Below, piece by piece: positions 3,589 to 60,857 of a DNA stretch of 64,000 nt (its first letter is position 1; each line of letters begins with the position of its first letter). The notes beneath the pieces are model-generated. The model was not told where the DNA came from. It saw nothing but the letters and a program-made list of their open reading frames with translations, and did not search any database. The translations under genes were made by a program, and so were the position numbers. Source of the DNA: an uncultured bacterium (lineage in GTDB: Bacteria > Patescibacteriota > Minisyncoccia > UBA6257 > 2-01-FULL-56-20); the NCBI GenBank assembly GCA_963844965.1, contig CAWJQC010000007.1, positions 192,001 to 256,000 on the forward strand, in the 5' to 3' direction.

Positions 3589-3589
3589 T

Positions 3590-3706: not shown

Positions 3707-3735
3707 TTTACAAAAATAATCGATGGCTGTATAAT
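3707..3735 (+). promoter_or_regulatory. consensus sigma70 promoter TTTACA-17-TATAAT
   Basis: TTTACA 3707-3712, 17-nt spacer, TATAAT 3730-3735; directly upstream of the 3734/3789 ORF. Confidence 0.55.
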
Positions 3736-4210
3736 GCGACCAGCCATTAATTTGATTCGGAAAGGGGTGTTTTATGGCGGTAGGGCGAAAGTGCAAGAAT
3801 ATTTTGAGGCGGCGGAGCTTGTTGAACAATATGTGGCTATGACTGAGCAGATGTATGACCAGCTACGCAGTTCCTTGGAATTGGCGGGGGACACCGCCGG
3901 CGCTAAAGCCACGAACATTCAAAAGAAAATTTACGCCGTGGTTCGTGACAGGGTTTTCGATTTTGTCTATGGAACTTACGAGGACCTTCTTACGAACGAA
4001 GAGGTGGACCAGCTTATTGAAATGGAGCGGCTTCCGATTGTTAAAAAGATGAGGGAGCTCACTCCGGAAATTCAGAACAGGATTATCGGATTCGTTATGT
4101 CTGCATATAAAGAGCTGGAAAAAGAAATAGAGAGAATTATCCACTCCGAACTCATAGGTGCCGACATCCTGCAAAAAACGTTTCCGCAGAAAACCAACCT
4201 GCCGAACTGA
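3734..4210 (+). CDS. hypothetical protein; likely start at GTG about 3789 after AGGG Shine-Dalgarno
   Basis: Long ORF with coding-like composition. The ATG at 3734 lies inside the -10 box, so the true start is probably downstream. No recognisable domain. Confidence 0.45.
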   Translation: MRPAINLIRKGVFYGGRAKVQEYFEAAELVEQYVAMTEQMYDQLRSSLELAGDTAGAKATNIQKKIYAVVRDRVFDFVYGTYEDLLTNEEVDQLIEMERLPIVKKMRELTPEIQNRIIGFVMSAYKELEKEIERIIHSELIGADILQKTFPQKTNLPN

Positions 4211-4250
4211 TTTCCTGTCGCGCCTCTCGTAGTGAACAATACATAATGCT

Positions 4251-4276
4251 GCCCGGTTTACCGGGCGGTTTTTTTG
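4251..4276 (+). terminator. rho-independent terminator (gcccggtttaccgggc + T7)
   Basis: Perfect GC stem followed by TTTTTTT just after the 4210 stop. Confidence 0.6.
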
Positions 4277-4357
4277 CTTGTATCTTATCGGGCGGCGTGG
4301 CTCAAATGGTGGACCTGCCGGCAGGCGGGGATGATACAGTCGGCCGCGCGCACGACC

Positions 4358-4399
4358 GTCGCGGTAGCGGAGAAGGAGAAGGGGATGGGGAGGAAGTAG
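4358..4399 (+). repeat. copy 3 of ppsA 3'-terminal segment (VAVAEKEKGMGRK-stop in frame); 33-nt match gcgcacgac(c)gtcgcggtagcggagaaggaga extends upstream to 4349
   Basis: Matches the ppsA end over about 33 nt with 2 mismatches, then diverges; retains an in-frame stop. Confidence 0.8.
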
Positions 4400-4488
4400 G
4401 ATATTTGGAAAACAAAAAGCGGACAGGGTTTGACGCCTGCCCGCCGAGTTTCTGGTCCTCGTCAGATTTGCCGTTTTGCCGTTGGAGT

Positions 4489-4749
4489 TTAACCGGAGTG
4501 GGGGTCGACTCTCGATACGAACCACCCGAAGTTAACCCCGAAGGGTTCATATTCGATCACATCCCTTTCGTGGAGTTTCTTTGCAATCGCCGGAGAAGCG
4601 ATGATGTGAAATCCGCCAAGGAATCGTGCCGGCGTCCGCGCCGTTCCAAGGCCGAGGTCGCGAATAACCTGGTCATCATCCGCCGGATATAACAGGATGC
4701 GGTCCCCGTCGTCTTCTATCTTTCCAATCGTCAAGGTTGGGTTAGCCAT
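4489..4749 (-). CDS. hypothetical protein (86 aa), translationally coupled to the upstream gene
   Basis: Start ATG overlaps the stop of the 4742-5218 gene in ATGGCTAA; no recognisable domain. Confidence 0.45.
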   Translation of the reverse strand: MANPTLTIGKIEDDGDRILLYPADDDQVIRDLGLGTARTPARFLGGFHIIASPAIAKKLHERDVIEYEPFGVNFGWFVSRVDPHSG

Positions 4750-24654: not shown

Positions 24655-25200
24655 CGGCCTTTAGGCCGAGGATAAGGCGACCCCGTAGCCCCGAGCGAAG
24701 CGAGGGGCGGAGGGCTTATTTGCCTGTTCCCACTGGTTTCTGCCGGTGCGATAATGAAGATAATGCCCTCTGGATTCTGGCCAAGCAACCACAGCTATAC
24801 GCGATGTTTGTACCACGTTGTTTTCTGCCCAAAGTACCGCCGCTCGATACTGCGAGGGGACATGGTCGGGCGACTCAAGACATTGTTCTTTCAAGCCGCC
24901 AAGATGAATAAATGGTTCATCCATGAAGCGCAGATAATGCCCGACCATGTCCATCTATTGCTTCAAATTCCTGCTACCCTGACGGTTGCCAAAGCGGTGT
25001 TTTATCTCAAAGGCGGTACGTCCAGGGCTGTCAGAAAAGAATTTCCCGAGCTGGAAGAATTCCTCTGGGGAGACAGCTTGTGGCAGGATGGTTACTTTGC
25101 CGAAACCGTTGGCCGTCAAAACGAAAAAGCGATGAGAGAATATATCAGAAACCAGTGGGAACAGGAGCCGAACACAAGCCGCGGGCTTTAGCCCGCGGTG
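24655..25200 (+). mobile_element. IS200/IS605-family element (tnpA only) bounded by perfect 20-bp inverted repeats and GC-rich hairpins
   Basis: cctgttcccactggtttctg at 24723-24742 and its exact reverse complement at 25146-25165; hairpins at 24688-24708 and 25176-25199. Confidence 0.7.
24754..25191 (+). CDS. tnpA: IS200/IS605 Y1 (HUH) transposase TnpA / RAYT-like
   Basis: YHVVFCPKYRR N-terminus, HUH motif HVHLLL, catalytic Tyr region; 145 aa. Confidence 0.85.
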   Translation: MKIMPSGFWPSNHSYTRCLYHVVFCPKYRRSILRGDMVGRLKTLFFQAAKMNKWFIHEAQIMPDHVHLLLQIPATLTVAKAVFYLKGGTSRAVRKEFPELEEFLWGDSLWQDGYFAETVGRQNEKAMREYIRNQWEQEPNTSRGL

Positions 25201-27112: not shown

Positions 27113-27152
27113 TTGGAAAAATTTGCGGAAAAGCGGGAGAATGGGGATATTA

Positions 27153-27869
27153 ATGAAAATAAAAAAACCAATCAAGATTACACCCCAACGTTCCTCGACA
27201 GAACTGGACTACCACGCCTTACTCGCAAAATACCCCTGGATGGCTAAGCGAGGACAAAATTGTATCGTAAGCCCAGATAGTGATGGTCTGCTTTGCGGTC
27301 TCCTTATGTCGTACTATCTAGGATGGCGGATTTGCGGATTTTATGACGGGAAAGTTCTCGTTCTCGAAGATGGTTGCAATCCTCAAGAAAGTGTTTTTCT
27401 CGACATGGAAATATTCCGGCCGAATATCCGCAGCGTTGGACAACATATGGTCATGTATGACAAGGCGGACCTACCACCAAACTGGCAAAATTTCGACAAT
27501 TGTATTGCTGCAAATAATCTAAGGAATTACGACTTTAAAAATGATTTCAAGCTCAAATATCCGCTTGGAACAGTTCATCTCCTGCTTGCTATTTTAGGAC
27601 AGAGCAACACCATCCCTATCACCAAAAATGGAGTGAGCCCGTTATTATATACCGACGGAACTTTTAAGAATCAATTTAACTATCCAGAAAATTGCTTGAG
27701 TTGGTTGGATTTTTTGGGAGCAAATCAGGCAAATAGTCCACTTCAAAAAATCTTTCTAGACAGACATTATTCAACTTATGAATTAATGGTTGAGCTGAAA
27801 GATTTATTTTTGAAATTCAATGTCATTGGAGGAGGAAAACGTGGCGGTGATAAAATCAAGAATCTCTGA
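27153..27869 (+). CDS. hypothetical protein (low-GC island); speculative nuclease
   Basis: AT-rich ORF convergent with the methyltransferase gene; SPDSDG...LEDG...DME acidic motifs but no firm PD-(D/E)xK assignment. Confidence 0.4.
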   Translation: MKIKKPIKITPQRSSTELDYHALLAKYPWMAKRGQNCIVSPDSDGLLCGLLMSYYLGWRICGFYDGKVLVLEDGCNPQESVFLDMEIFRPNIRSVGQHMVMYDKADLPPNWQNFDNCIAANNLRNYDFKNDFKLKYPLGTVHLLLAILGQSNTIPITKNGVSPLLYTDGTFKNQFNYPENCLSWLDFLGANQANSPLQKIFLDRHYSTYELMVELKDLFLKFNVIGGGKRGGDKIKNL

Positions 27870-28155
27870 TTCGCGAGGAAATATTGTTAACATCGACTCT
27901 CGTACCAACCTCCTCAAGACAGAAACTAGGACTCAAGCAGAAAATCTTTTGGAAATGTTGGCAGACAAAACTAAGTGGACATTTACGTCCGCTCATTGGC
28001 CGTGGGGTCCATATCAAACCACTCGATTTAGAAAAGGCAGCGTAAAACCTGGGAAGGCTCGTTACAACGCGCTTCTTGCTCAAAATCCCATATCTCTCGC
28101 GATTATCAGCCGAGAGAGTATTGAATATACGATAGACGAAAACGGAATGTTCTAG
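27820..28155 (+). CDS. hypothetical protein
   Basis: ORF overlapping the previous gene's end; no recognisable domain. Confidence 0.3.
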   Translation: MSLEEENVAVIKSRISDSRGNIVNIDSRTNLLKTETRTQAENLLEMLADKTKWTFTSAHWPWGPYQTTRFRKGSVKPGKARYNALLAQNPISLAIISRESIEYTIDENGMF

Positions 28156-29609
28156 AGCAATCTGTTTTGTGACGCCAAAACGCATTCTTCCTTCATGCGT
28201 TTTTCTGCAATCGCACAGTACTCGGGCGCAATATCAATTCCGATATACTTGTGCCCCAAATTCTTTGCCGCAACGGTAGTAGTGCCACTTCCAACAAAAG
28301 GATCTAAGACGACCCCATTTTTGGGACAGAAGCATTGTATGAAATCGTACGGCAATTGATTTGGAAATGTTGCCGGATGTTGATGTTTTAGTCGGCTGCC
28401 GTCACCGGCCGTGAGATATTCCCAAATCGTCCCCCGGCACTTCATGGGATTTATCTTGATGGGTCGGGTGTTTATCCGTGTGCCATTTGTCAGGCGAGTG
28501 CCTCCGCCTGTCAATGTTTTCCCGCCCCACTTAGACGGTATTTTGAGTGGTTCTTTATTGAAATGCTGTGGCCTTTCTCCTTTTAGGAAAATTGGCATAT
28601 ATTCGTGGTCGACACGGAAGCGTTTATTCCACCAAGCGCCCTCCGCGCCGTACTTTCTATAGATGGTGGTCTCAAAAAGTTTAAATCCTACATTATCACA
28701 CCAATCTATTATTGTTTTGAAAGAGGTCAGCGATTTCGCGAAATTTTTTGTTTGATCTTGGATGACCATTACGGCTACTCCGCCGTCTTTCAGCGCTCTG
28801 TATATTTCTCTTCCTGTCTCGTGGAGATTAAATTTCGGCCTTCCTTTGTAGTCGCGTACGGCATCGTACGGAGGCGAAGTGACTACAATATCCACCGAAT
28901 TGGGGGGAAACTCTTTCATTATATCTACCGCATCGCCGCAAATGATTTTATTTAGCGGCAATTCTTCATATTTTTTAACTTCTTTGTGCTCGGGAAGTTG
29001 TATTGTTGACGCTCCTTCTTCCCGGATAACATCAAGCACTATTCCTTGGATTGAAACATCTCGTCCGTTTCGGAAGATAAGCGGCTCCATATTTTTATTG
29101 GCCGGTTGCAAACGAATATGTCCTCGTTCTTTATAAAATTTCTTAAGTGTTGCTTCGTGATTATCAATAAGCGCCACCACTTTTTGTCCGTTCTCGGCGA
29201 TTTTCTGCTGTTTTACCAAAACGATATCTCCATCGTTGATATTCTCATCAACCATGCTATTACCGACAACCTTTAGTGCGTAAATCTGGCCAGAACCGGG
29301 TAATCTACTTTGAGGAACAGCGATGGTCTCTCTGTCTTCTATGGCCTCAATCGGTTGGCCTGCGGCTATGGTTCCCAGCAGAGAAATACTTATCATCTTT
29401 TCTGATTTTGAAATTTCTATCCCTCGCGGCTGACTCGTCGCCTTTGTCAATAATCCTTTCTCTTTCAACGATTCAATATGCTGGTGAATAGTTGAGACCG
29501 AACTTAACCGGAAATGCTTTTTAATTTCCTCAAGCGATGGAGCGAACCCCCTTTTCTTGGTAAAACTTTTTATAAAATCCAAAATTTGTTTTTGGCGTTT
29601 GGTTAGCAT
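28152..29609 (-). CDS. LexA repressor (HTH + S24 autopeptidase) fused to beta-class N4-cytosine/N6-adenine DNA methyltransferase
   Basis: N-terminal 200 aa match LexA end to end: KRQKQILDFIK HTH, AAG cleavage site, Ser nucleophile GNSM (Asn in place of canonical Asp), catalytic Lys in IVLVKQQ. C-terminal half has MTase motif IV SPPY, motif I DPFVGSGTT and target-recognition region. Confidence 0.8.
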   Translation of the reverse strand: MLTKRQKQILDFIKSFTKKRGFAPSLEEIKKHFRLSSVSTIHQHIESLKEKGLLTKATSQPRGIEISKSEKMISISLLGTIAAGQPIEAIEDRETIAVPQSRLPGSGQIYALKVVGNSMVDENINDGDIVLVKQQKIAENGQKVVALIDNHEATLKKFYKERGHIRLQPANKNMEPLIFRNGRDVSIQGIVLDVIREEGASTIQLPEHKEVKKYEELPLNKIICGDAVDIMKEFPPNSVDIVVTSPPYDAVRDYKGRPKFNLHETGREIYRALKDGGVAVMVIQDQTKNFAKSLTSFKTIIDWCDNVGFKLFETTIYRKYGAEGAWWNKRFRVDHEYMPIFLKGERPQHFNKEPLKIPSKWGGKTLTGGGTRLTNGTRINTRPIKINPMKCRGTIWEYLTAGDGSRLKHQHPATFPNQLPYDFIQCFCPKNGVVLDPFVGSGTTTVAAKNLGHKYIGIDIAPEYCAIAEKRMKEECVLASQNRLL

Positions 29610-29749
29610 AGTTTGATTATACCAGCATCCCCAATCTTTTGCCTGTGGATAACTTTCGGTTTATTTTCGGTATGGTTTATGTTATAATGTAATCAACAAC
29701 AAAAGGCGTAAGGTACCAAGAAAATAGAGCAAAAATTTAGTTTTTAAAC

Positions 29750-30226
29750 ATGTGGCAATTTACCGAACAATATAAAAGGGTTGAAAGGTGGCACGCTAGA
29801 CTAAAAGCAATCTGTCGGAAAGTTCCAAAAGATATTGGAGACGATGAAGACATTCAAGGCAGAGATGACATTTTGGCGTTTTTTCAAAATTGTTACCATC
29901 TGAAAGATTGGGTTGAGAATGATGGTTCATGCCAAATTGCCGACAAGAAAAATGTAGTCGAAAATTTCATTAAAAATTCAGAATTTTTAAAGGTGTGCAA
30001 AGATGTTTGCAATGCGTCTAAGCACTTAGAGGTGGGACATCAAAGAATAGATCCGAGCGAGATTGTTAATTATGAGTTTTTTATATCAGGACCAAGTTTT
30101 TCTAACGGTGTTGTTACGAAACGCAATTTTAAAATTAGAGAACAGTATGAGGCGTTAGATCTCGCAGATAAATGTATGGGTGAGTGGCACGACTTTTTTA
30201 ATAAACAAGGAATGTCTTGGTCATGA
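29750..30226 (+). CDS. hypothetical protein (island cargo)
   Basis: 158-aa ORF preceded by an extended -10 TGTTATAAT; no domain recognised. Confidence 0.4.
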   Translation: MWQFTEQYKRVERWHARLKAICRKVPKDIGDDEDIQGRDDILAFFQNCYHLKDWVENDGSCQIADKKNVVENFIKNSEFLKVCKDVCNASKHLEVGHQRIDPSEIVNYEFFISGPSFSNGVVTKRNFKIREQYEALDLADKCMGEWHDFFNKQGMSWS

Positions 30227-30331
30227 TTGCCTACCCCATAATCCGAAAATCCCACGAATCCTGCGAAAAAGCGAAAGAATTATTAGAAGAAGCCAAACGA
30301 AAGGTCGAGGAAATGATAGAAAAGAAATAAA

Positions 30332-30628
30332 ATGCCCAAATTTAGTAGGCTCAAAAAATTTACGAAAACGAACATTGAGAAAATACCTAAAAATAAATCA
30401 ATAGTATATAAGCTTACAAATACTGCTGGCAAAAACTTATATACGGGTATTGCTGGACGTGGCAGAACCGTTAAGCGCCTGCTCGAACACAAAAAACTTA
30501 AGAAGGACGAGATAAAGGGGGCGTCTCGTTTTAAGATCGCTCAAGTATCTACCAAAAAGCGAGCGGCTCAGATTGAAAAGCAAATTATAAAAAGGGAAAA
30601 ACCAGAGTTTAACATCCAGCATAAGTAA
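30332..30628 (+). CDS. GIY-YIG nuclease domain small protein
   Basis: IVYKLTN...LYTGIAG...RLLEH pattern (GIY-YIG core with Arg and Glu). Confidence 0.55.
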   Translation: MPKFSRLKKFTKTNIEKIPKNKSIVYKLTNTAGKNLYTGIAGRGRTVKRLLEHKKLKKDEIKGASRFKIAQVSTKKRAAQIEKQIIKREKPEFNIQHK

Positions 30629-30648
30629 ATTATGCTATAATTTATATT

Positions 30649-31452
30649 ATGAAAACCATTAAAGAATTACTGGAACTTTCGGGGAAAACGGCGATCGTAA
30701 CCGGCGGGGCGGCCGGCATCGGTTTTGGCGTGAGTTCGCGCCTCGCGGAAGCGGGTGCGAACGTCCTTATCGCGGATATGAACGCGGAGAACGCGGAAAA
30801 GGCGAAAAAAGAATTGTTGAGCGGCGGCTGGAAGGCGGAGGCCGTGCATGCAGACGTTTCAAACGAGGATGACGTTCGGAAAATGGTGGAGAAAGCGGTT
30901 GACGCTTTCGGCGGCGTGGACATTCTCGTGAACAACGCCGGAATTTATCCGAGCATCCCCGTGATGAATATGTCGGCGGCGGATTTTGAAAAAGTTATCG
31001 CCGTTAATCTTAAGGGCGTTTTCCTTTGCACGAAAAAAGCGGCGGAGCGGATGATATCGCAGGGGCGCGGCGGGAAAATTATTAACATCACTTCCATTGA
31101 CGCTCTGCATCCTTCGTCCGTCGGCCTTGCCCACTACGATGCTTCCAAACATGGCGTCTGGGGTTTCACGAAGAACGTGGCTTTAGAGCTCGCACCGCAC
31201 AATATCTGGGTGAATGCCGTGGCTCCGGGCGGCATAGCGACTCCGGGAGTTGCCGATTCGCAGAAAACGGCTCCGACCGCGGTCGGAGTGGATATGAAGA
31301 AAGTGCTTGAAGGATTTCTCGCCAAAATCCCGATGAAGCGGATGGGGGAGCCGGACGATATCGGCAAGGTTGTGCTTTTTCTCGCCTCGGAAATGTCTTC
31401 TTATATGACGGGCAGCCAGATAGTGGTGGACGGCGGATATTTGCTGATGTAA
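30649..31452 (+). CDS. SDR-family oxidoreductase (FabG-like)
   Basis: TGGAAGIGFG cofactor motif and catalytic YDASK. Confidence 0.85.
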   Translation: MKTIKELLELSGKTAIVTGGAAGIGFGVSSRLAEAGANVLIADMNAENAEKAKKELLSGGWKAEAVHADVSNEDDVRKMVEKAVDAFGGVDILVNNAGIYPSIPVMNMSAADFEKVIAVNLKGVFLCTKKAAERMISQGRGGKIINITSIDALHPSSVGLAHYDASKHGVWGFTKNVALELAPHNIWVNAVAPGGIATPGVADSQKTAPTAVGVDMKKVLEGFLAKIPMKRMGEPDDIGKVVLFLASEMSSYMTGSQIVVDGGYLLM

Positions 31453-31549
31453 TAAACGACGAATTTTCTTCGTAAAGTATTCCGCTATTGATATTTTGAA
31501 TGAAGTTAGTTATGATATGACACAGTCCTGAATTGATAAGGAGGGAGCG

Positions 31550-32844
31550 TTGAAGACAAAATATAGAATATTAGATACAAGCAGAGTTCTGGGGATAATC
31601 TGCGCCGGCGGCGACGGAACCAGAATTGAGCCGCTTTCAAGATACAGAGCCAAACCGGCCATTCCGATCGGCGGCAGCCACCGGCTGATAGACATCGCGC
31701 TTTCAAATAGCCTGAATTCCGGATCACGCACAACTGCGTGATCGTCCAGAAACGTCCCCAATCTCTTGTCGCGCACCTTGACGGCTACTCCAACGGCGTG
31801 GCGCAGATGCGCGGGCAGTTCATCCACACGCTTTCTCCTCCGAGAGAGGAGGAGAGATTTTTCGCGTCGGATGTTGATTCGTTCATCCAGCTCCGCGGCC
31901 ACCTTGTGGCTGAGGGTTTTGATATCGTCCTCATAACTATGGCCGACCAGGTGGTAAAAATAGATTACCGGCAGGTTATTGAGAGTTTACTTGAGGGGAA
32001 CGCGGACGCCGTCATGGTGTACAACGCCATGCCGGTTAAGGTCGCGAGTGGCGCCCTTGGCGTGATGGAAGTGGACAGCGACGATGCCGTGATGGGCATG
32101 GAAGAAAAACCGCGGGAGCCGAAAGAAATTCCGGGGCGGCCAGGTTTTTGCGTGGCAAATTTAGCCATGTATGCCGTTAAAATGGACGTTTTCGGCGATA
32201 TGCTGGACTACGTTCAAGGGCATCACGAACCGGAAAGCACGCTTTCCAATTCCGGCATTCCCTGGCTCATTAAGAATCGGAAGGTGCTTGGCTACGATCT
32301 CGGCGACAATGTGGTTGTCGGCGCTTCCGAGCGGGAAAAGAATTATTTTGCCGATACGGGAACCGTTGACGCCTGGTTTGATGTGCAGATGAAAATGTGC
32401 GGCCGCAATCCCGCTTTCAATTTTTACTCGCGGGACTGGCCGATATACACCGCGCCTCGCTGGCCGATGAGTTCGGCGAAAGTGGACGACGCCAGACATA
32501 TTTCCGAAGTTCTTTTCGGATGGGGCGTGATCTGCGAAGACAGAGTTGTTGTGGAAAAAAGCGTGGTGAGCACAGGAGTCAACGTGAGACACGACAGCTC
32601 GATAACGAATTGCGTGATTCTTGATGGCGCGGATATAGGGCCGGGTTGCGCGTTGGACAGGGTGGTGATCGAAAAGAACATTAAGATACCTGCCGGGACC
32701 AAACTCTCGCCGCTTGATCCGCCGGATTCCACGATCAAGTTCGCCGACCTCTACGCGAAGATTAAGGCCGGCGAGACCTGCGAGAACACTCCAGTTTTGA
32801 CTGACGGGGGAGCGCTGGTTTTCCCCAAATTCTACAAGTTTTAG
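31550..32844 (+). pseudogene. glgC: glucose-1-phosphate adenylyltransferase with a 1-nt deletion frameshift near codon 60 (sequencing error possible)
   Basis: N-terminal [31 protein letters not shown]...LNSG ends at TGA 31739-31741. Conserved GlgC continuation ([15 protein letters not shown]...) resumes in the -1 frame; missing A in ggAatc at about 31728. Confidence 0.75.
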
Positions 32845-35253: not shown

Positions 35254-36429
35254 TGGACTACAAACAAGAACTTCAGGAGCTTGAGGCTGAAGCCCGGCGG
35301 TTAGCCGGGCGGCTTTGACGTAGCGGGCAAGGAGCGAGAGATAGAAAAGTTGGAAGCCGAAATGTCCAGCGCAGGTTTTTGGTCGGACCGTGCGGCGGCA
35401 GACGAGAAAATAAAAACTCTTGGCGAGTTGCGTGATTTGGTTGATAAGTTTCATGTGATCGAGACCGGAATCAAAGAATTAAACGAGAAGGATATTACTC
35501 CTGCGCCTCCGAATGCCTTATCTCACGGAGTTATACCTACTCCTATTTCAAAATCTAAAGAATTAAAGGATGAGGATTTTACTTTGGTGTCTCCGGATTC
35601 CCTATCACACGGAGTTATACCCACTCCAATTTCTAAAACTTCCAAATTTTTCGAAATAAAAAAGAAACTCAGAGACCTTGAACTGACCACACTTTTTACT
35701 GGCAGGTATGACAAGCAGGCGGCCGTGCTTTCGGTGTATCCGGGCGCGGGCGGCGATGATGCCGAAGATTGGGCGCGGATGCTCGCTGAAATGTATGAAA
35801 ATTACGCCAAACGCCGCGGCTGGCAGCATAAAATGATTGACGACAATCCGCGCTCGCGAACATTTGAAGTTCGCGGCGCCTACGCTTATGGTTATCTGAA
35901 GAAAGAAGCCGGCGTTCACCGGCTCGTCAGAATTTCGCCGTTCTCGGCGAAGAAACTGCGGCACACGTCGTTCGCTTTGGTTGAGGTCGTGCCGGATCTG
36001 CCACCGGTTGAAGAGGCCAAGCTGCAAATTCCGGAAAAAGATCTGAAGCTGGAGTTTTCGCGAGCGGGCGGGCCGGGCGGCCAGAATGTGAACAAAGTGG
36101 AAACGGCGGTGCGGATAGTACACTTACCGACGGGGCTCGCCGTGAGTTCCCGCGCCGAGCGGGCGCAGGCGCAGAACCGCGAGCGGGCAATGAAACTCCT
36201 GAAGGCCAAGATATTCCAGCTGATGGAAAAGAATCAGGTGAAGGAATTGAGTGAGCTTCGGGTAAAGGTGAAACCGGAGTGGGGTAATCAGATCCGTTCT
36301 TACGTTTTGAATCCTTACCAGTTGGTGAAAGATCACAGAACCGAGGCGGAAACCGTGAGAGTTCACGAGGTTCTTGCCGGTGATTTGGACTCATTCATTG
36401 AAGCAGAGGCGGAATCCGGGCTAACTTAA
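35254..36429 (+). CDS. prfB: peptide chain release factor 2 with programmed +1 frameshift (CTT TGA C at 35313-35319)
   Basis: ORF0 [21 protein letters not shown] stops at TGA followed by C; the +1 frame continues [16 protein letters not shown]...; SPF and GGQ motifs present. Confidence 0.9.
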
Positions 36430-43161: not shown

Positions 43162-43565
43162 ATGCCTCAGCGTGAAAAACCATTGATACTCGTCACCGAC
43201 GACGATAAGGACTACCGCGAAGCCGTTGTTCTGCAATTGCAGGCGGCCGGCTTTGACACCATCCAGGCAAAAGACAGCAAGGACTCAATTCAAAAAGCCA
43301 AGGAATCCAGCCTGATCTTATTCTTATGGACGTTAACATGCCGCCGGGTCTTAACGGCATTGATACCGCACTGGAGCTCAAAGAAACGCCCGAAACGAAG
43401 GATATTAAGATCGTTTTTCTGAGCGGTTTGGAGAATCCGTGGCCGCTTTTCGGCGGAGAAAGGGGAGACGTGAGCAGGGAAATGGGAATGGAGGATTACT
43501 TCATAAAGACGAAGGATTTCAGCGAACTGGTGGCGAAAATCAAGAAGATTTTGAACGTAACGTAG
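43162..43565 (+). pseudogene. CheY-like single-domain response regulator with 1-nt deletion frameshift (CCC to CC near 43310); sequencing error possible
   Basis: ILVTDDD... then expected PDLILMDVNMP receiver motif continues in another frame (ORF 43326-43565 MDVNMPPGLNGI...). Confidence 0.7.
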
Positions 43566-43919: not shown

Positions 43920-45169
43920 ATGGCTGAATTAAAACGCGACGCCTCTTTTCTTAAAATAGAGATAGAAAAAGATCTCGCGCGGCAGGTGGACAAGGTCTCC
44001 GTCGTTTCCTTGGTTGACTTGCTGGTGGAGTACGCTTATATCTTGCGCGCTTCCGACATCCACATTCAACCCGAGGAAAATTCGTTGCGCATCCGTTACC
44101 GCATAGATGGTCTCCTCCAGGATATTTTCCAGAAGATGACCATTCGCAAGGACATCCAGCCCGAAATCATCAGCCGCATAAAAGTTCTCGCCGGCTTGCG
44201 CACTGACGAGCACCTTGCTTCGCAGGACGGGAGGATCAAGGTTAAGGTCAAGGATTTCGGCGAAATCAGCGTCCGTGTTTCCATCGTGCCGACGTACAAC
44301 GGGGAGAACGCCATTTTGAGGGTGCTTGCCGAAACGCAGGGATTTACCGTGAACGATTTGGGATTTTTGCCGAACGACCTGAAGAAAGTTACGCACGCCA
44401 TGACGAAGCCCTACGGTATGATCCTCGCGAACGGTCCGACCGGTTCCGGTAAGACAACGACCCTCTACACGATTTTAAAAACCTTGAACAAGCCGGATAT
44501 TTCCATAGTGACCATAGAAGACCCTATTGAGTACGCATTGCCGGGAACCTCGCAAATTCAGACCAACGCCGACATAGGATTCACGTTCGCGAGCGGTCTC
44601 AGATCAATTCTGCGCCAAGATCCTGAACATCATCATGGTGGGCGATAATCCGCGACGAAGAGACGGCGGGAATAGCGGTGAACGCGGCCCTGACCGGCCA
44701 CCTCGTGCTTTCAACTCTGCACACCAACGATTCAGCAACAACCTTTCCCCGGCTCATAGATATGGGTGTGCCGCCATTCCTCGTAGCTTCAACGGTTAAC
44801 GTGGCGATGGGCCAGCGTCTTGTCCGGATGATATGCCAGAAGTGTAAGCAGCCGCGTAATTTTAGCGAGATGGAAATAAAAAGTTTGGCGGAAATCATTC
44901 CGGAGTCGGCAAAATATCACGGCAAGTTTTTCATAGGGAAAGGATGCCCCGCCTGCAATGGAACCGGCTATATCAGCCGCACTGGCATACGCGAAGTGTT
45001 GGAAGTGAACGAGACAATCAGCCAGCTTATCATGAACCGCGCGAACGCCAAGCAGATAAAGGATGCTGCTGTCAAAGCCGGAATGACCACGATGACAGAA
45101 GATGCCTTGGAGCGCGCTTCCAAGGGAGTCACCTCCATTGAGGAAATTTTGCGCATTATACACGAGTAG
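43920..45169 (+). pseudogene. pilB: type IV pilus assembly ATPase PilB/GspE family, disrupted by two single-nt insertions 18 nt apart (about 44626 and 44644)
   Basis: Walker A GPTGSGKTT; the DPDIIMVGEIRD motif is recoverable only by shifting frames twice; downstream ORF 44678-45169 carries the [14 protein letters not shown] and CxxC Zn motifs. Confidence 0.8.
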
Positions 45170-45308
45170 CGCGATGAATCCCGTTAGAAATCCTGCCGGC
45201 AGGCAGGCGCGGACGCTTTTCCAATGACACACCTATTGAACGGTCGAAGTATGTTAAGCAACAACGGTAGGCGCGGAGTTTTTCCGTCCGCGTCCTATTT
45301 CTAACGGG

Positions 45309-46388
45309 ATGAACAAATTTCAGAGAATTCTTTCCCGATTATTTGACAGCGTCCCGCTTCAGGACAAAATTAATTTCGCGCGGCATATGGCGCTTATCAT
45401 AAAAGCCGGATTGCCGATATACCAGGGACTGGGGATTATCCGCGCCCAAACGACTTCCAAGGTGCTCCTTAAGGTGATAGACAGCGTTATGGAAGACGTG
45501 AACAACGGGAAGTTTCTTGCCGACGGGTTGGAAAAATTTGAATATCTTTTCGGGACTTTTTTTGTGAACATCATCCGCGTGGGGGAATCGAGCGGGACCC
45601 TCGCCAAGAATTTCTTGTATCTTGCCGAAGAACTCAAAAAATCCAAAGCGCTCAAAAGCAAGGTCACTTCGGCAATGATATATCCGCTTGTGATTTTTGC
45701 TATGACTTTGGGAGTGACGGGTTTTCTGGCGTTTTTCGTTTTCCCGAAACTTCTGCCGGTATTCGCGAGCTTGAACGTCAAGCTGCCCATAACCACCGTC
45801 ATAATGATGGGCGTCCTCCAGTTTTTGCGCGAGTATTTCATAGAGCTCATAATCGGGGTCGTCATTCTTGTTGTCGCAGTTAGGATGATTATTAAGTACG
45901 TAACGCCGATAAAGTTCCTTCTGGATAAGTTGATTCTTGTAACGCCGGTAATCGGGCCGCTTTCCGTTGATGTTAATATGGTCAATTTTACGCGCGTCTT
46001 TGGATTGCTTTTGAAGAGCGGCGTAAAAATCTTGGAGGCGGCCATGATAACATCAAATACTTTTGAGAATATCGTCTACAGACGGGCGCTCGTAGCCGCG
46101 AAAGATGAAGTTCAGAAAGGCGGCCAGCTCGCGACCTATATGGGCGAAAAAAAGAGATATTTTCCTCCGCTAGTGACCGGCATGATACGCATCGGTGAGG
46201 ATACCGGCAATCTGGAAGAAAACCTGGACTACCTTTCGGAATATTACGAGGACGAAGTTGATACCAAGCTGCACGTTTTGACGAGCGTTCTTGAACCCTT
46301 GATGCTGCTTTTCATGGGGCTTCTCGTCGGATTCGTTGCTTTGTCCATTATCACGCCAATTTACTCCATTTCGCAGGGCATCCAGTAG
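45309..46388 (+). CDS. pilC: type IV pilus inner-membrane platform protein PilC (GspF family)
   Basis: Two GspF repeats and three TM segments; follows pilB. Confidence 0.85.
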   Translation: MNKFQRILSRLFDSVPLQDKINFARHMALIIKAGLPIYQGLGIIRAQTTSKVLLKVIDSVMEDVNNGKFLADGLEKFEYLFGTFFVNIIRVGESSGTLAKNFLYLAEELKKSKALKSKVTSAMIYPLVIFAMTLGVTGFLAFFVFPKLLPVFASLNVKLPITTVIMMGVLQFLREYFIELIIGVVILVVAVRMIIKYVTPIKFLLDKLILVTPVIGPLSVDVNMVNFTRVFGLLLKSGVKILEAAMITSNTFENIVYRRALVAAKDEVQKGGQLATYMGEKKRYFPPLVTGMIRIGEDTGNLEENLDYLSEYYEDEVDTKLHVLTSVLEPLMLLFMGLLVGFVALSIITPIYSISQGIQ

Positions 46389-46392
46389 CTCC

Positions 46393-46531
46393 AACTTTCT
46401 ATTTTTGAGAACCGGCGTCACGAATGCTCCAGCGGCATTCGTGCGCCTGCATCTCGCTCCGACGGCGTCCGATTAAAATCGGACGACCAAGCCCGTCGGA
46501 GCTCCGATAGCTTCTCAAAAATAGAAAGTTT
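46393..46531. repeat. 139-bp nested palindrome: 17-bp AT-rich terminal inverted repeats enclosing three GC hairpins
   Basis: ctttctatttttgagaa (46396-46412) versus ttctcaaaaatagaaag (46512-46528). Inner stems cacgaatgc/gcattcgtg, gctccgacgg/ccgtcggagc, cgtccgat/atcggacg. Confidence 0.7.
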
Positions 46532-46639
46532 CCGCGATGGGATTAAGGTGTTTTGCTGACGCAAAACAGCCTTTGTGAAGCAACACCCGGCGCTTTTGGA
46601 AATAAAAATCGCCCCGATCTGTCTGATCGGGGCGCGCTG

Positions 46640-51955: not shown

Positions 51956-52630
51956 TCATTGTCCGAGCGCGGGCAGGTATTCCGGTCCATAGGTGGCGGT
52001 AATGTCGCCGTCCGCGTCGTAGACATCCATCTTATAGTAGTATGGATCGTATAGCGTTTGGTCCAGGATTTTTATGGAGTAGGGACCGCCTGACGGCGGA
52101 TTTTCTTGCGTAAGCACCGCTAGCCACGGTCCGTTTTGGTCAGCCGAGCGCGAAACCACGAATTTCTCCGTTCCCAAGGGAAGGTTCTGCCAACCGATGT
52201 CAATATTGTTATCCATATGGTCTACCCAAAAATTCTCAGTTTGCGGCTGGCCGTAGCCCGAAATGCCGCCTTGCGGATTGTAATAGGGAATTCCGGACGG
52301 CTTTGGCGTAGGCGTCGGCGTCTGAGTTGGCGTCGTTGATGTCGGCGTTGGGGATGGCGATTGGCTTGGGGTGCCCGTGCTTTGCGTCGTTGATGATGGC
52401 TGCGTACTTGGAGGCGTCGTTGGCGGAGGAGTGTTGGTTCCCGTGGTCGGCGTCGGTGCCGTGGTAGATGGCGTGGATGTTGAAATTACCGTCGGCGTTA
52501 TGGGCGATGTCCAGAGAACGGTTTCTTCGGACGGTCCGCCGGTTTCGGTGCTTGAACCGGTGCCGGCGCCGTTATTTGTTCCGCTTGTGCCACTAGCAAC
52601 TGCCTCCACGTAATAAACGTACGTCTCCAT
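51956..52630 (-). CDS. Thr/Pro-rich secreted protein C-terminal part; probably the 3' portion of one gene with 52801-53094, disrupted by frameshifts
   Basis: TPTPTT low-complexity linker plus globular C-terminus. A Gly-rich coding segment (52635-52800) is readable only in a third frame. Confidence 0.5.
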   Translation of the reverse strand: METYVYYVEAVASGTSGTNNGAGTGSSTETGGPSEETVLWTSPITPTVISTSTPSTTAPTPTTGTNTPPPTTPPSTQPSSTTQSTGTPSQSPSPTPTSTTPTQTPTPTPKPSGIPYYNPQGGISGYGQPQTENFWVDHMDNNIDIGWQNLPLGTEKFVVSRSADQNGPWLAVLTQENPPSGGPYSIKILDQTLYDPYYYKMDVYDADGDITATYGPEYLPALGQ

Positions 52631-52800
52631 TCCCCTCGCTTGTTTTGCCGAGTGAGATGGAAAAATTCCCGCTTTCTATGTCGCCTGAGAATATTCCGCC
52701 ATCTATGTTAATTCCGCCAGCCGTTCCTGCGCCGGTCGCGCCACCACCTCCCGTGCCCCCGCTGATTCCGCCGCCTTTACCAGAAACAATATCTTGCAGG

Positions 52801-53094
52801 TTAACGGTTTTCCAGAGCTCCCACTGCGTTGTCCCGGCCTTCGCGCGGTAGAATATTTATGCGTGCGGTGTTCGCCGGTATATTATCCCAGCGCATGATC
52901 AGGACATCCTCACCGCCGCTCCGCTGAATTTCTACGGTCAGTTTCGGTTCGTTGGGCTTGGCAACGGGCGTGACAGTTTCTTGGCGAAAAATCGTGAAAA
53001 TATCCTGTCCGGTGATTCTGTAGTATATGAAAGTAACGCTCGCAAGCCCGACGACAAAAAGGATGGCGAAGTAAATTTTGCTTTTTACTGTCAC
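52801..53094 (-). CDS. membrane-anchored N-terminal part of the Thr/Pro-rich protein
   Basis: N-terminal TM helix; ORF terminates where a different frame continues coding-like sequence. Confidence 0.45.
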   Translation of the reverse strand: MTVKSKIYFAILFVVGLASVTFIYYRITGQDIFTIFRQETVTPVAKPNEPKLTVEIQRSGGEDVLIMRWDNIPANTARINILPREGRDNAVGALENR

Positions 53095-53172: not shown

Positions 53173-54334
53173 CTATTTTCTGGATTCCAGGTTCTCTATC
53201 AGCGCGATTTCCAAGGGTACAACCGCGAATGGGCTGTAGCGCATTTCGGAGTAGGCGCGGATGAGGGACTGGAGAAGTTTTACGGCGGATGCCGGTTCAA
53301 TAAGCGTGCCGAGTTGTTTGACTCTTTCTATCTCTTCGCCGGTCAACTCGCCGCGGAGCGCGGTTTCCGTGGCCGGACTTATCTTCAGCGCCAGAATTTT
53401 CCTTACATAATGGATTAGGTCTTTCGTGAATTGGGTCAAATTTTGCCCTTCTTCGTTAAGTTCCGCGAGATAGTTGATGCTTCCTTTGAGGTCTTTTTTT
53501 AAAATTAATTCCGCCAGCCCATCCACTTTTTTGAGGCCGACGCGGCCGGTGATTTCTTTCGGCCGCTGCCAGATCAATCCCGACGTGTTTTGCGGTCGGG
53601 ACTCCGACCCCGCCAGTGGCGGGCGTCGGAGTTTCCAATGAACTTATCTGGTCTAAGAGCGATTCGGCGTCGCGGAAACTTCCTTCCGCGGCGGCTGCGA
53701 TGAGCTCAAGCGCCGGTTTGTCAATCTGAATTTTTTCCGCTTTCGCCATCATCGCCAGTTTTTCCATGATCTTCGTTTTCGGAAGTTTTTTAAAGAGGAA
53801 ACGCTGAGTGCGCGAAACAATGGTCGCGGGCAATTTTTCGTATTCGGTCGTCGCGAGTACGAGAACGGCGTGCGCAGGCGGCTCTTCCAGGGTTTTGAGG
53901 AGCGCGTTAAAAGCGGGCGTCGTGAGCATGTGTACCTCGTCTATGATGTAAACTTTGTATTCGCCGGACGCCGGAGAGGTTCTGATGCTGTCTTTGAGGT
54001 TGCGGATCTCGTCAATGCCGCGGTTGGAGGCGGCGTCTATTTCAATGACGTCAAAAGAATTCTGCGCGTCAATTTCTTTGCAATGGCGGCATTCATTACA
54101 TGGTTCGCCAAGCTTTCGGAATTCGGCGTCGTCGCGGCGCTTCTCGCAGTTTAATAGCTTGGCGATGAGCCGCGCAGTCGTGGTTTTTCCGGTCCCACGC
54201 GAGCCGTAAAACAAATAGGCGTGGCCAAGCCGCCCCGCCTTTGCGGCGTTCTTCAGAATTTGCGCGTTCGTTTCCTGCCCAAAAGCTCGTCAAGTCTCTT
54301 TGGGTCGGTATTTGCGATAGAGGGCGAGTGCCAT
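53173..54334 (-). CDS. dnaX: DNA polymerase III subunit gamma/tau, carrying several frameshifts (likely assembly indels)
   Basis: MALALYRKYRPK start at 54334. Walker A GSRGTGKTTTARL, zinc module CNECRHCKEID, SRT box IVSRTQRF. An extra G and a missing C 20 nt apart near 54275-54304, plus another shift between ORFs 53456-54214 and 53173-53577. Confidence 0.8.
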
Positions 54335-54418: not shown

Positions 54419-55798
54419 ATGAAATTGATTTTATTGTGCGGTGCAATAATAACGGTTTTAGTCGCCGCCGTTTTTTTATTTTTGCCCTCGGATGAAGTGA
54501 TTGTTGTTGGCAACGGCGCAACCACCGGCTCGGCGATTGCGACAAGCACCGCCGTATCCTCAACCCTGCTTTCCGTGCCGGAGGCGCCGACTTCATCGCA
54601 AGCGGCCTTGAGTTATGCGACAAATTCCGCCTCGGCATCGTTTTCCGACATAGGGCCGCAGCAGCCGCTCGTGAATCCACCGACAGTCATGAAGGGTGTG
54701 TATATGACCGAATCGTCCGCGGGCTACGCTCCGAAAGTCAACTATATAATTGACTTGGCCAATAAGACCGAAATCAACGCTGTGGTCATAGATATAAAGG
54801 ATTACTCCGGTTATGTTTCCTATCGCACAACCGTTCCGGCGACAAAGGAAACTGGAGCCGAGGGAGAGATAAGAATCGCCCAACCGAACGCTCTGCTTAA
54901 AAAATTTCACGACGCGGGAATTTACGTTGTCGGAAGGATTACCGTGATGCAGGACCCTGTGCTGGCTAAAGCCCATCCGGAGTGGGCGCTTATAAACAAA
55001 ACAACAGGCAAGACATGGACTGATAATAATGGACTTGCCTGGATGGACCCTGCGGCGGAACCGGTTTGGGAATACAACGCGGCAATTGCCAATGACGCCA
55101 TCGCGCGCGGATTTGACGAGGTGCAGTTTGACTATGTTCGTTTCGCCTCCGATGGCGACCTCACGAATATCGGATATCCATACTGGGACGGGAAAACGGC
55201 CAAGCACACGGTTATAAAAAATTTCTTCGCATATCTGCGGGGGAATTTACCGGAAGCTAAACTTTCCGCCGACGTCTTCGGACTTACGACGGTTGACACT
55301 GACGACTTGGGCATCGGCCAGGTTATTGAAGATGCCTACAAATATTTTGATTACGTGTCGCCGATGGTGTATCCTTCCCACTATGCCCCCGGGTTTTTGG
55401 GCTATGCGAATCCGGCGAAATATCCATACGAGGTTATAAAATATTCAATGGACCATGCGCTCGCGCGGCTCAAGGCCGGTGAAGAGGTTACAGAAAACGT
55501 TTCTTCGACTTCGGCAACGTCCACGGCCACGGTTACGGTCAATGTGCCGTACCGGGCCAAGCTTCGTCCTTGGCTTCAGGATTTTGATTTGGGCGCGACC
55601 TACGACGCCACGATGGTGAAAAAAGAAATGCAAGCGACCTACGATGCTTTGCTGAATTTCATATCTACGCCACCCTCGATGATAACCGCAACTTCAACGC
55701 TTATAGAAGCTCCCGGCTCTTCGAATGCAGATTACGGCGGCTGGCTCCTCTGGGACCCGGCGAATATTTATACGGAAGGAGCGCTAAATAGTAAATAG
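54419..55798 (+). CDS. membrane-anchored putative glycoside hydrolase-like protein (DUF4015/GHL-type)
   Basis: N-terminal TM; (beta/alpha)8-like segment with conserved acidic residues; assignment tentative. Confidence 0.4.
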   Translation: MKLILLCGAIITVLVAAVFLFLPSDEVIVVGNGATTGSAIATSTAVSSTLLSVPEAPTSSQAALSYATNSASASFSDIGPQQPLVNPPTVMKGVYMTESSAGYAPKVNYIIDLANKTEINAVVIDIKDYSGYVSYRTTVPATKETGAEGEIRIAQPNALLKKFHDAGIYVVGRITVMQDPVLAKAHPEWALINKTTGKTWTDNNGLAWMDPAAEPVWEYNAAIANDAIARGFDEVQFDYVRFASDGDLTNIGYPYWDGKTAKHTVIKNFFAYLRGNLPEAKLSADVFGLTTVDTDDLGIGQVIEDAYKYFDYVSPMVYPSHYAPGFLGYANPAKYPYEVIKYSMDHALARLKAGEEVTENVSSTSATSTATVTVNVPYRAKLRPWLQDFDLGATYDATMVKKEMQATYDALLNFISTPPSMITATSTLIEAPGSSNADYGGWLLWDPANIYTEGALNSK

Positions 55799-55815
55799 GT
55801 ATAGCCAATATCAAA

Positions 55816-56550
55816 ATGGTTTACGAACTAAAAACCGAAAAGTTTTCCGGCCCGCTGGAAAAACTTCTTGAGCTTATTGAGGCCAAACAGCTTACCATCA
55901 ACGAAATCAGCTTGGCCGAAGTTACGGAAGATTTTTTGAAGTATCTTGAAGCGCTTACGGACGCCGATATGCGCCTTGTGGCCGACTTTATTGCGGTCGC
56001 GAGCCGGCTTGTTCTCATCAAGTCAAAGTCGCTCTTGCCGGACCTCAGTTTAACGAGCGATGAGGAGTCGGACATCAAGGACCTGGAGAAACGCCTTAAA
56101 ATTTATCAGGAGCTGAAGCCGGTGATGAAAATGCTCGATACTCTTTGGAAAAAGGCGGGGCGCGAATTCAGCCGGCCGTATTTTTTGGAACAGGGCGCGC
56201 CGCTCGCGGGCGGCGCCAAGGTGTTTTATCCGGGCGAAGGCCTGGAAATTCAGGCGCTTTTCGGGGCACTTCACAAGATTTTTGAAAGTTTCGTGAATCT
56301 GGAGCTGGAAACCAAATCCATCAAGGAAAAAATCGTCACCATAGAGGAAAAAATAGCCGAAGTCGTTGAACGGCTGGCAAAGGAAGGCGAGTCAACATTC
56401 AAAAATCTTTCTTCGGCGAAATCGCGCTCGGAAGTCATCATAATTTTTCTCGCGATACTACATCTTGCCCGCGAGCGGCTCATCGCACTCGAGCAATCCG
56501 AAAGATTTTCTGATATAATAATCAAGCGACAAGCGGCAGGTAACAAGTGA
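55816..56550 (+). CDS. scpA: segregation and condensation protein A
   Basis: LEKLLELIEAKQLTINEISLAEVTEDFLKYL N-terminal ScpA signature. Confidence 0.8.
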   Translation: MVYELKTEKFSGPLEKLLELIEAKQLTINEISLAEVTEDFLKYLEALTDADMRLVADFIAVASRLVLIKSKSLLPDLSLTSDEESDIKDLEKRLKIYQELKPVMKMLDTLWKKAGREFSRPYFLEQGAPLAGGAKVFYPGEGLEIQALFGALHKIFESFVNLELETKSIKEKIVTIEEKIAEVVERLAKEGESTFKNLSSAKSRSEVIIIFLAILHLARERLIALEQSERFSDIIIKRQAAGNK

Positions 56551-56551
56551 C

Positions 56552-57163
56552 ATGGAAAATTTGGATAAAAAAATAGCGGAACTGGAGGCTTTGCTCTTCA
56601 TCCATGGAGAGCCGCTCTCGGTGAAGAAAATCGCGCCGATTTTGGAACTTAAGATTGAAGAAGCGAAAGAGGTTGTTGAGGAACTCAAGAAGCGTCTGGA
56701 ATCGGACGAGAGGGGATTGGCGTTGGTTTCCGACGAAGAGCGCGTTCAACTCACGACAAAACCGCAGTTCGGAAAAATCCTGGAGAAGTTCATCAAGGAA
56801 GAGCTTTCGGAGGATTTGACGCCGGCGAGTTTGGAGGCTCTGGCGATCGTGGTGTACTTTGCGCCGATTTCGCGCAGCCGACTTGAGTATTTGCGCGGAG
56901 TAAACTCCATTTTCATTTTGCGGAGCCTGCTTTTGCGTGGCCTGGTTGAGAGATATCCGGATCCCGCCCGACCGAACGCTTTCCTCTACAAGCCGACGTT
57001 CGATTTGCTGAAGCATCTTGGTCTCAAAAACCGCGAAGAACTGCCAGAATTCGGAAAATTCCAGGATTTGCTCAAAAGGTTTGAATCGTCGGGCGGTGTT
57101 GCCGTACCGCAGCAACCGCCCGAAGCGAGCTACGGCGACGTACAAAGCGAGTTGACGCAGTAG
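56552..57163 (+). CDS. scpB: segregation and condensation protein B
   Basis: LEALLFIHGEPLSVKKIA winged-helix ScpB signature; immediately follows scpA. Confidence 0.8.
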   Translation: MENLDKKIAELEALLFIHGEPLSVKKIAPILELKIEEAKEVVEELKKRLESDERGLALVSDEERVQLTTKPQFGKILEKFIKEELSEDLTPASLEALAIVVYFAPISRSRLEYLRGVNSIFILRSLLLRGLVERYPDPARPNAFLYKPTFDLLKHLGLKNREELPEFGKFQDLLKRFESSGGVAVPQQPPEASYGDVQSELTQ

Positions 57164-59442: not shown

Positions 59443-59555
59443 GAAGGTGCTAAGTGTTTTGCTTTTTGAGTGAGATTTGACGAGGAATGTCTGGGTTGAT
59501 ATAAGTATAGTAGCGATAAATCAAATACTATTACTATCCTTGCGAGGAGGTAGCT

Positions 59556-59777
59556 ATGGCGCAACGCCCGCCAGTGGCCTTTGTGATACTTCTGCGAGTG
59601 CAGGAGATTGACATGACCGGAAAGATAGAACAACTTTTAAAAGAACTCCGTCTCGGGATAGAAGGAGAAGGCAGATTTAATTCCTTGCCGCGTCGATGCG
59701 GCAAGTGCGGGACGATAGTATATGCCAACAGGACAAAATTCCGTTGCCCATATTGCGGAAAAGTTATCAAGTTGTAG
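59556..59777 (+). CDS. small zinc-ribbon protein
   Basis: CGKCGT...CPYCG four-Cys ribbon; start codon uncertain. Confidence 0.35.
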   Translation: MAQRPPVAFVILLRVQEIDMTGKIEQLLKELRLGIEGEGRFNSLPRRCGKCGTIVYANRTKFRCPYCGKVIKL

Positions 59778-60021
59778 TTTTTCAAAAGCTTCTCTGTTGG
59801 CTGCAGTTTAAGGCCGCGCATTAGACGGAGCAACAGAAGTAAGACAGAATGCCCGCGGGCGTGATACCCGCGGGATTTATTTTTGCCAATGCAAAATTAT
59901 CATCGGGCCTCACCATTTTCTCTCCAGATCTTTATAGAAGCGTTCCTACTGGTATTGACAAAGAGCGGCATTGCGCCGCATACTTTCTACGGTTGGTATT
60001 TTACAACCAAGGAGGATAGTT

Positions 60022-60390
60022 ATGCGCAGGAATGACGCTGGTTCCGGCTTGTCCAAAGTATTAATTGTGGTAGCTGTAGTAGCTGCGATTTCATTCATCA
60101 TTGCGATGGTTGTCCTTGAATATCAATCACATGCCAGGCCCGATGTGGAGTTGAGCGGCTGGGTCAGGAACGTAAACATTGTTTATGACTCTACTATTGT
60201 CGCTGTTGAGAAAGACGGCGACATCACGCCGCAGTCATATGAGCTGATCGGCAAACACTCTGAACTTTGGAAGGGCGAGCATGTTTGGCTAAGGCTTCAC
60301 TTCCGTCCTTACAGAGAGGAATACGAAATCGTCGGCTTCAAGCGACTCGGCCCCGACGACAAATCCAGGCCGTTGATAGTAAGTCATTGA
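60022..60390 (+). CDS. hypothetical membrane-anchored protein
   Basis: Single N-terminal TM (LIVVAVVAAISFIIAMVVL). Confidence 0.4.
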   Translation: MRRNDAGSGLSKVLIVVAVVAAISFIIAMVVLEYQSHARPDVELSGWVRNVNIVYDSTIVAVEKDGDITPQSYELIGKHSELWKGEHVWLRLHFRPYREEYEIVGFKRLGPDDKSRPLIVSH

Positions 60391-60424
60391 GTTTTCGCGG
60401 AAAAGCCCCACCATTTGGTGGGGC

Positions 60425-60495
60425 GGTTCTTTTGCGGCGCATATTTTTATAAAAAAAGAGCCCTCGCCGGTTCCGACCGGCGAGGGGTTTGGAGA
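60425..60495. terminator. pair of GC hairpins with U-runs (terminators)
   Basis: gccccaccatttggtggggc + ttctttt; ccctcgccgg-ttccga-ccggcgaggg + gttt. Confidence 0.5.
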
Positions 60496-60857
60496 ATTGA
60501 AAGTGAGCGGGGTGCTCAAGAAGCGTGGACGATGTAGTCCTTATGACTGGAATACGGCGCCAGCCCGAAGGGCGCAGCGGCTCCGTGAGTGAACCAGAAC
60601 GCCCTTTTGGAACTTTGAACATTGTTCTCGGCCATCCTCAACATTTTAAGCTGGCCTTTCCCGTGGTCATAGTCCTTTTTGGGGTTAAAGCCGTCCCTGA
60701 GTATTTCTTCCTCTGAGCTGTCTTAATTATAGCAGATAACAAATTTAATGTCAAGCCCATTCCCAAGCGCCAAAAGCGGTGTTAATCTTTATAAAACAAG
60801 TCGTTTATTGGATGGTTTTTTCTATTTTCTACTTTCTAATTTCTATTTTCTAAACCA

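Follow-up and report, generated by a model that had tools for sequence, protein, structure and literature searches.

Three one-base indels that interrupt dnaX in a Patescibacterial contig are probably consensus errors of the assembly

The dnaX gene is single-copy and essential in bacteria. In the window, by which we mean the whole stretch of 64,000 nucleotides analysed here, dnaX is broken on the minus strand by three one-base indels, and this raises the question of whether the break belongs to the organism or to the assembly. We found that it is most likely an assembly artefact and not a real feature. The parts of the locus are as follows.

53173 to 54334, minus strand: dnaX, for the short, gamma-length form of DNA polymerase III gamma/tau; three one-base indels interrupt it
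54290 to 54334, minus strand: N-terminal stub in frame 0, translated as MALALYRKYRPKET and then stopped by TGA
54296 to 54301, minus strand: dnaX indel 1, one extra base, where the reading switches from frame 0 to frame +1
54278 to 54297, minus strand: RLDELLG segment, the right peptide in the +1 frame, with the family-invariant residues L14, L18 and G19
54276 to 54280, minus strand: dnaX indel 2, one missing base, GGG_CAG (Gly19-Gln20), returning to frame 0
53456 to 54214, minus strand: middle fragment ORF of 252 aa, from Walker A to the AAA+ lid, a separate public gene (P0139)
53553 to 53555, minus strand: dnaX indel 3, one extra A (GAAAGAATC to GAAAGAAATC), a single-column gap against the locus of the closest relative (L001)
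53173 to 53577, minus strand: C-terminal fragment ORF of 134 aa, domain III or collar, model positions 236-353 of 355

The gene begins, read on the minus strand from 54334 towards 53173, as MALALYRKYRPK. Its ATG is at 54334-54332, and an in-frame TGA follows at 54292-54290. Frame 0 therefore reads MALALYRKYRPKET*RAFGQETNAQILKNAAKAGRLGHAYLFYGSRGTGKTT and is open again beyond the TGA as RAFGQETNAQILKNAAKAGRLGHAYLFYGSRGTGKTT, and the +1 frame gives PKRLDELLG between the first two shift points. The first-pass annotation had proposed a compensating pair of indels inside 54272-54306, with RLDELLG in another frame and frame 0 resuming before the Walker A motif. The translations of both frames bear out this arrangement, with a +1/-1 pair about 21 nt apart. 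By codon, the three shift sites of the gene fall at 13, 19 and about 257.

The base identities proposed for the pair, an extra G and a missing C, did not hold up as well as its position. The sites of gain and loss are real, but which base was gained or lost is not fixable from the sequence. Indel 1 may be an extra G (54298) or an extra A within 54299-54301 (CCC AAG AGA to CCCAAAGAGA), and for indel 2, a loss near 54277, any base of a GGN glycine codon fits. The further shift suspected between the ORFs at 53456-54214 and 53173-53577 is one extra A, as located by alignment to L001.

Removing the three indels gives a DnaX of 386 aa. In a search of 5.8 billion clusters, its closest homologue was P0001, which also has 386 aa and is collinear with it over 100% of the length at 89% identity. 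A rare TPTP...GVGVPTAK insertion is common to the two proteins. P0001 is encoded on an NCBI contig, and its 21-kb neighbourhood (L001) is syntenic with the window at 45.3-62.1 kb. At indel 1, the L001 orthologue reads CCC AAA AAA CTT in frame. In the DNA alignment, indels 1 and 2 appear as a compensating pair within otherwise codon-conserved sequence, and indel 3 appears as GAAAG-AATC in L001 against GAAAGAAATC in the window.

Over its whole length, the repaired protein aligned with each of the eight close homologues that we examined, and its best 120 matches are 366-478 aa long with 98-100% query coverage. Those that carry names are DNA polymerase III gamma/tau from Candidatus Liptonbacteria and other Patescibacteria. 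The DnaX equivalog model TIGR02397 matched it with 393.5 bits (cutoff 250) over model positions 3-353 of 355, and NF004046 matched with 424.9 bits (cutoff 400). In the deposited dnaX, by contrast, the model match is divided between two ORFs, one with positions 40-226 and the other with 236-353, and positions 1-39 fall in no ORF that reaches 30 aa. The AAA+ motifs were present in the translation (Walker A GSRGTGKTT, four-Cys zinc module C63...CNECRHC, Walker B IIDEVH, and VSRTQRF with the Ser-Arg finger), and the DnaX motif columns are invariant in the alignment of close homologues. The Ser-Arg finger motif is SRC in E. coli. Domain III (PF12169), annotated for close DnaX homologues, is required for clamp-loader assembly, and here it lies in the C-terminal fragment.

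We also examined how the repaired gene differs from its relatives. Among 60 relatives, 170 columns are at least 95% conserved, and the repaired DnaX has no private substitution at any of them; the median for the relatives themselves is 2, and the highest count is 6. The differences between repaired dnaX and L001 number 39/23/164 on codon positions 1/2/3, and downstream of the third shift they number 17/7/67. A contig scan with the repaired protein returned, among the matches listed, distant relatives only, at no more than 46% identity. A 32-mer common to the window and L001 had no match in a metagenome scan, and a degenerate 26-mer gave 64 loci in metagenomes, none of them closer than L001 (about 76% nucleotide identity). 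This Liptonbacteria-like Patescibacterium most likely carries an intact dnaX of 386 aa.

A programmed event has to be considered for this gene, since dnaX is a classic recoding gene. The E. coli gene undergoes a programmed -1 ribosomal frameshift (tau/gamma), Thermus dnaX uses transcriptional slippage, and some Patescibacteria-related lineages read UGA as Gly. Here, recoding would mean a +1 shift near CCC AAA G and a return by -1 near UUU UGG G, or else readthrough or bypass of the UGA. The gene family and a frame change within the gene are what the window shares with the E. coli and Thermus systems. However, the known sites in those two genes lie after domain III, where stimulatory elements accompany an A-rich slippery run, and are conserved, whereas the window breaks have no slippery sequence, are absent from relatives, and would abolish the protein instead of giving a shorter isoform. 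Specifically, there is no X XXY YYZ heptamer in register and no long A-run at CCCAAAGAGAC, TTTTGGGCAGG or GAAAGAAATC. The L001 DNA keeps its frame through all three sites, the eight aligned close homologues are uninterrupted there, and the best 120 matches are full-length.

The genetic code gives no more room for recoding. TGA ends 11 of the 48 confidently annotated genes in the window (TAG 19, TAA 18), and these genes have full length under table 11; thus the standard code applies, the frame-0 TGA is a stop, and a UGA-recoding code (tables 4 or 25) is not indicated in the window. A frame-0 reading would moreover replace the family-invariant residues L14 and L18. The protein is of gamma length without the tau extension and hence has no need of a gamma/tau shift, and three separate events would be needed per mRNA. 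Since TGA is an ordinary stop and the shifts occur in no relative, recoding is effectively refuted, and we regard it as extremely improbable.

We give next to no credence to a fixed compensated frameshift, that is, a real +1/-1 pair altering seven residues of a functional DnaX. The net length change of the pair is zero and frame 0 is back before the Walker A motif, as such an event would require. But the shifted stretch holds the in-frame TGA at 54292-54290, which refutes it under the standard code. The conserved RLDELLG exists only in the other frame, and the differences from L001 fall at positions typical of that frame. In addition, the third shift is uncompensated and truncates the protein, removing domain III. 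Taken together, the chance of anything programmed at this locus is slight.

Other breaks had been suspected in the same window, in glgC, a receiver gene, pilB and a Thr/Pro-rich gene. To take inventory, we used the L001 genes as probes of the window and compared about 80 ORFs with Pfam. All four suspected genes proved to be frameshifted by one-base changes (1, 1, 2 and 2, in the order named), which brings the window total to nine one-base frameshifting lesions in five genes. The four are listed here.

51956 to 53094, minus strand: Thr/Pro-rich surface-protein gene adjoining dnaX, two one-base insertions (52851-52853 and 52622-52628), from tblastn of the L001 orthologue in frames -2/-3/-1
43920 to 45169, plus strand: pilB (T2SSE ATPase), two one-base insertions (44621-44625 and 44646), 25 nt apart, from the L001 DNA alignment
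43162 to 43565, plus strand: response-regulator receiver gene, one-base deletion at about 43303-43311
31532 to 32844, plus strand: glgC-like sugar-phosphate nucleotidyltransferase gene, one-base deletion at 31722-31724; the public call P0121 starts just past the break

In pilB, Pfam T2SSE positions 3-213 and 220-370 fall in different frames. Undoing the single-base changes restored full-length collinear ORFs in dnaX, pilB, glgC, the Thr/Pro-rich gene and the receiver gene; dnaX, pilB and glgC then have no internal stops, and the repaired GlgC matches homologues of 429-431 aa collinearly. The spectrum of lesions thus consists of nine one-base indels, with no nonsense codons in the repaired genes. 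The remaining 13 genes in common with L001 are intact, as is every other gene with a Pfam match. Some overlapping same-strand ORF pairs were considered as frameshifts and rejected as ordinary neighbours (Aminotran_5/Macro; ABC/ABC-2/isochorismatase; the enolase end). Comparison of the Thr/Pro-rich gene with its orthologue (L001 11764-13356) also showed that the window gene is without the Big_7/fn3 middle region, in place of which a Thr/Pro linker stands in frame; this seems to be a genuine difference in domain content between close relatives.

The indels, at a density of at least 9 per 64 kb or about 1 per 7 kb, are grouped in three patches, at 31.7 kb, 43.3-44.6 kb and 52.6-54.3 kb. Two of the patches cover adjacent but functionally unrelated genes (dnaX with the Thr/Pro-rich gene, and the receiver gene with pilB), so regional consensus trouble fits better than gene-specific decay. 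For nine uniformly placed sites, two pairs no more than 30 nt apart have P of about 4e-4; the tight pairs still have P of about 0.02 when the indels are confined to their own genes. The presence of nine indels in five of about 62 genes has P of about 4e-4.

A check of the homopolymer and indel error profile had been proposed as a way to recognise assembly errors. The lesions are one-base indels only, and none of the 96 homopolymer runs of at least 6 nt inside genes coincides with a shift. The breaks are not classic homopolymer errors, and the sparing of these runs argues against replication slippage as well as against classic homopolymer sequencing error. Indel 3 of dnaX alone is pinned to a short run (AA to AAA). 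Placement in a homopolymer is ambiguous at the other eight of the nine sites, so it points to no particular sequencing platform. No k-mer was enriched around the nine indel sites after permutation (P 0.54). The motif RATC[AC] lies within 7 nt of five of the nine (53554, 44621, 44646, 43309 and 31723) with a nominal P of about 3e-4, which is not trustworthy because the motif was chosen post hoc; it would be relevant only for a nanopore deposit in which such sites are targets of the encoded adenine methyltransferase.

These distributions bear on the possibility that the indels are real, in which case the assembled haplotype, dominant or a captured minority, would carry very recent pseudogenes in a decaying or defective genome copy. 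Clustering by gene, nine in five, is as expected for dead genes, the indels keep away from long homopolymers, where classic nanopore, 454 or Ion Torrent errors would be expected to fall, and the breaks are present in the deposited assembly. Several frameshifts within single genes are also known from pseudogenes that arise in reductive genome evolution, as in Mycobacterium leprae and recent symbionts. However, decay of the M. leprae type brings missense as well as nonsense changes, deletions of larger size and indels biased to homopolymers, and it spares essential replication genes; none of this applies here. Relaxed selection should leave an excess of private or nonsynonymous changes, nonsense codons or larger deletions, a pattern not seen in the conserved columns and codon positions of repaired dnaX, nor as internal stops in repaired dnaX, pilB and glgC.

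For dnaX, three lesions would have to be accepted in one essential single-copy gene that shows no private substitution at 170 conserved columns and no nonsense codon. Under neutral decay producing 3 indels in 1.16 kb, at least 10 amino-acid changes would be expected, about 4-5 of them at conserved columns (a rough estimate that takes substitutions to outnumber indels as they usually do; P of about 0.01). Slippage indels favour homopolymers, which are untouched here, tight pairs are improbable even within genes, and the patches cross the borders of unrelated genes. The judgement of the first-pass annotation that a decaying genome copy is the less likely account therefore stands, on the conserved columns, the missing nonsense codons and the essential nature of the gene, and we consider real mutations of this kind unlikely.

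To place the breaks in the public record, we used exact look-ups. The broken fragments are public gene calls on a contig of 331,718 bp (NCBI, ENA), namely DnaX of 252 aa, PilB of 242 and 163 aa, a surface-protein fragment of 97 aa and GlgC of 368 aa. The shifts are thus in the deposit and were not introduced later. Numerous very short N-terminal DnaX calls (58-105 aa) were also seen on long contigs (64-395 kb) of other public assemblies (P0152, P0160, P0174, P0178, P0226 and P0236), and truncated dnaX calls seem to be recurrent across public MAGs and not peculiar to this genome.

Three Logan contigs (L146, L147 and L148) of run ERR10755942, on which we found no literature, represent the same strain in an independent assembly. 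These contigs cover one of the nine indel sites, indel 2 of pilB. Outside a 37-nt patch in pilB, they agree with the window over 6,083 nt with 1 mismatch and no indels: L147 corresponds to 28756-31615 with 1 mismatch and no gaps, L148 corresponds to 55296-56578 without any difference, and L146 corresponds to 44638-46615 and is identical to the window over 1,940 nt after its first 37 nt. With a short query from the DnaX N-terminus, we found no fragment of the same strain, and the best match was 83% identical. The patch is as follows.

44638 to 44674, plus strand: 37-nt patch at pilB indel 2 where L146 differs from the window, with 8 substitutions and the extra base absent

At this site, L146 does not have the extra base of the window and reads VGEIRDEETASIAV in frame. 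Six of its 8 substitutions are synonymous, and one codon changes from Gly to Ser. The patch, the sole disagreement between the two assemblies over about 6.1 kb, thus sits on an indel site. L146 represents a different local allele, rather than the window's allele with one base taken out; it follows that an in-frame version exists, and not that the base in the window is wrong. Judging from these two sequences, the population holds at least two alleles at the pilB patch, one of them in frame. The three Logan contigs have six ends, two of which fall no more than about 110 nt from an indel site: the start of L146, inside the pilB patch, and the end of L147, 108 nt short of the glgC indel. A k-mer assembler behaves in this way at variant bubbles.

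The coincidence of at least one patch with strain-level micro-diversity points to a collapsed-haplotype consensus as the likely source, and not to random per-base error. We think it probable that all nine shifts, three of them in dnaX, are consensus errors at places where co-existing strain variants were collapsed. Co-existing strains would differ at many positions within a few tens of bases, with local divergence of about 20%, and reads at such patches would align in shifted registers. A polisher may then insert or drop single bases in the collapsed consensus, often as nearby pairs. This mechanism, which we infer from the one patch in pilB, would produce tight pairs and kilobase-scale patches across gene borders and would spare long homopolymers. 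The deposit is probably from long reads, a guess based on the 331.7-kb contig, which spans places where k-mer assembly breaks into pieces of 1-3 kb.

The earlier view that errors are likelier than biology in dnaX, and by extension in the other four genes, is in line with the full length of the repaired genes, the restriction to indels, the standard code and the absence of the shifts from relatives; for pilB indel 2, the open frame of the same-strain assembly without the extra base points the same way. The two alleles at pilB could be read differently, as defective and functional alleles coexisting in the population. In one such scenario, which we hold to be very unlikely, the indels would be real and mark short recombining hypervariable patches, with defective dnaX, pilB and surface-protein alleles beside functional ones. 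Defective genomes could be kept, as one example, by complementation within dense episymbiont populations.

Consensus errors of the kind we favour have precedents. Where a diploid assembly had been collapsed, allelic variants close to one another caused reads to misalign, which added indel errors and truncated ORFs (PMC8445201), and in long-read MAGs, indel-driven pseudogenes are common, particularly where coverage is low (PMC8103633). Indel errors that fragment genes are also described elsewhere for long-read or collapsed-haplotype assemblies (PMC12007338). The window resembles these cases in having one-base indels only and repaired ORFs of full length, and likewise in its nearby allelic variants, its essential genes hit and the in-frame independent assembly at pilB. 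It differs from the textbook nanopore pattern in that its indels avoid long homopolymers.

The biological value of the break is low, and its practical value is as a warning about assembly quality. Public gene calls already spread fragments of DnaX, PilB and GlgC as separate proteins. Gene loss, pseudogenisation, metabolic gaps at glgC or pilus defects inferred from this assembly for a lineage with reduced genomes would mislead. Patchy, paired indels outside homopolymers would be a useful signature of collapsed strain variation for frameshift-aware or short-read polishing.

Several observations were made elsewhere in the window. A single ORF of 485 aa at 28152-29609 (minus strand) joins LexA (TIGR00498, residues 2-197) to a CcrM-like N6-adenine DNA methyltransferase (PF01555, residues 220-479). 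Its LexA part is complete, with the DNA-binding domain and the S24 autopeptidase, and a low-GC stretch adjoins the ORF. An SOS-cleavable methyltransferase, if true, would be unusual. Between this fusion and an Fe-hydrogenase-like gene, about 1 kb of low GC (27113-28150; 0.42-0.46) shows neither a coding signal nor a Pfam match, and could be foreign or degraded DNA. At 24754-25191 (plus strand), we found an IS200-type Y1 transposase (PF01797, full-length match), a mobile element in a small genome.

The gene at 35350-36429 (plus strand) encodes a release factor nearest to RF2 (TIGR00020, 342 bits, just below the cutoff of 370) in one continuous frame, and it shows no sign of the programmed +1 frameshift that bacterial prfB typically has. 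Finally, about 1.4 kb at 59443-60857 holds weak ORFs only, and L001 has instead, at 2128-4724, genes of 646 aa and 96 aa that are unmatched in the window. This differing content indicates a variable island between conserved neighbours.
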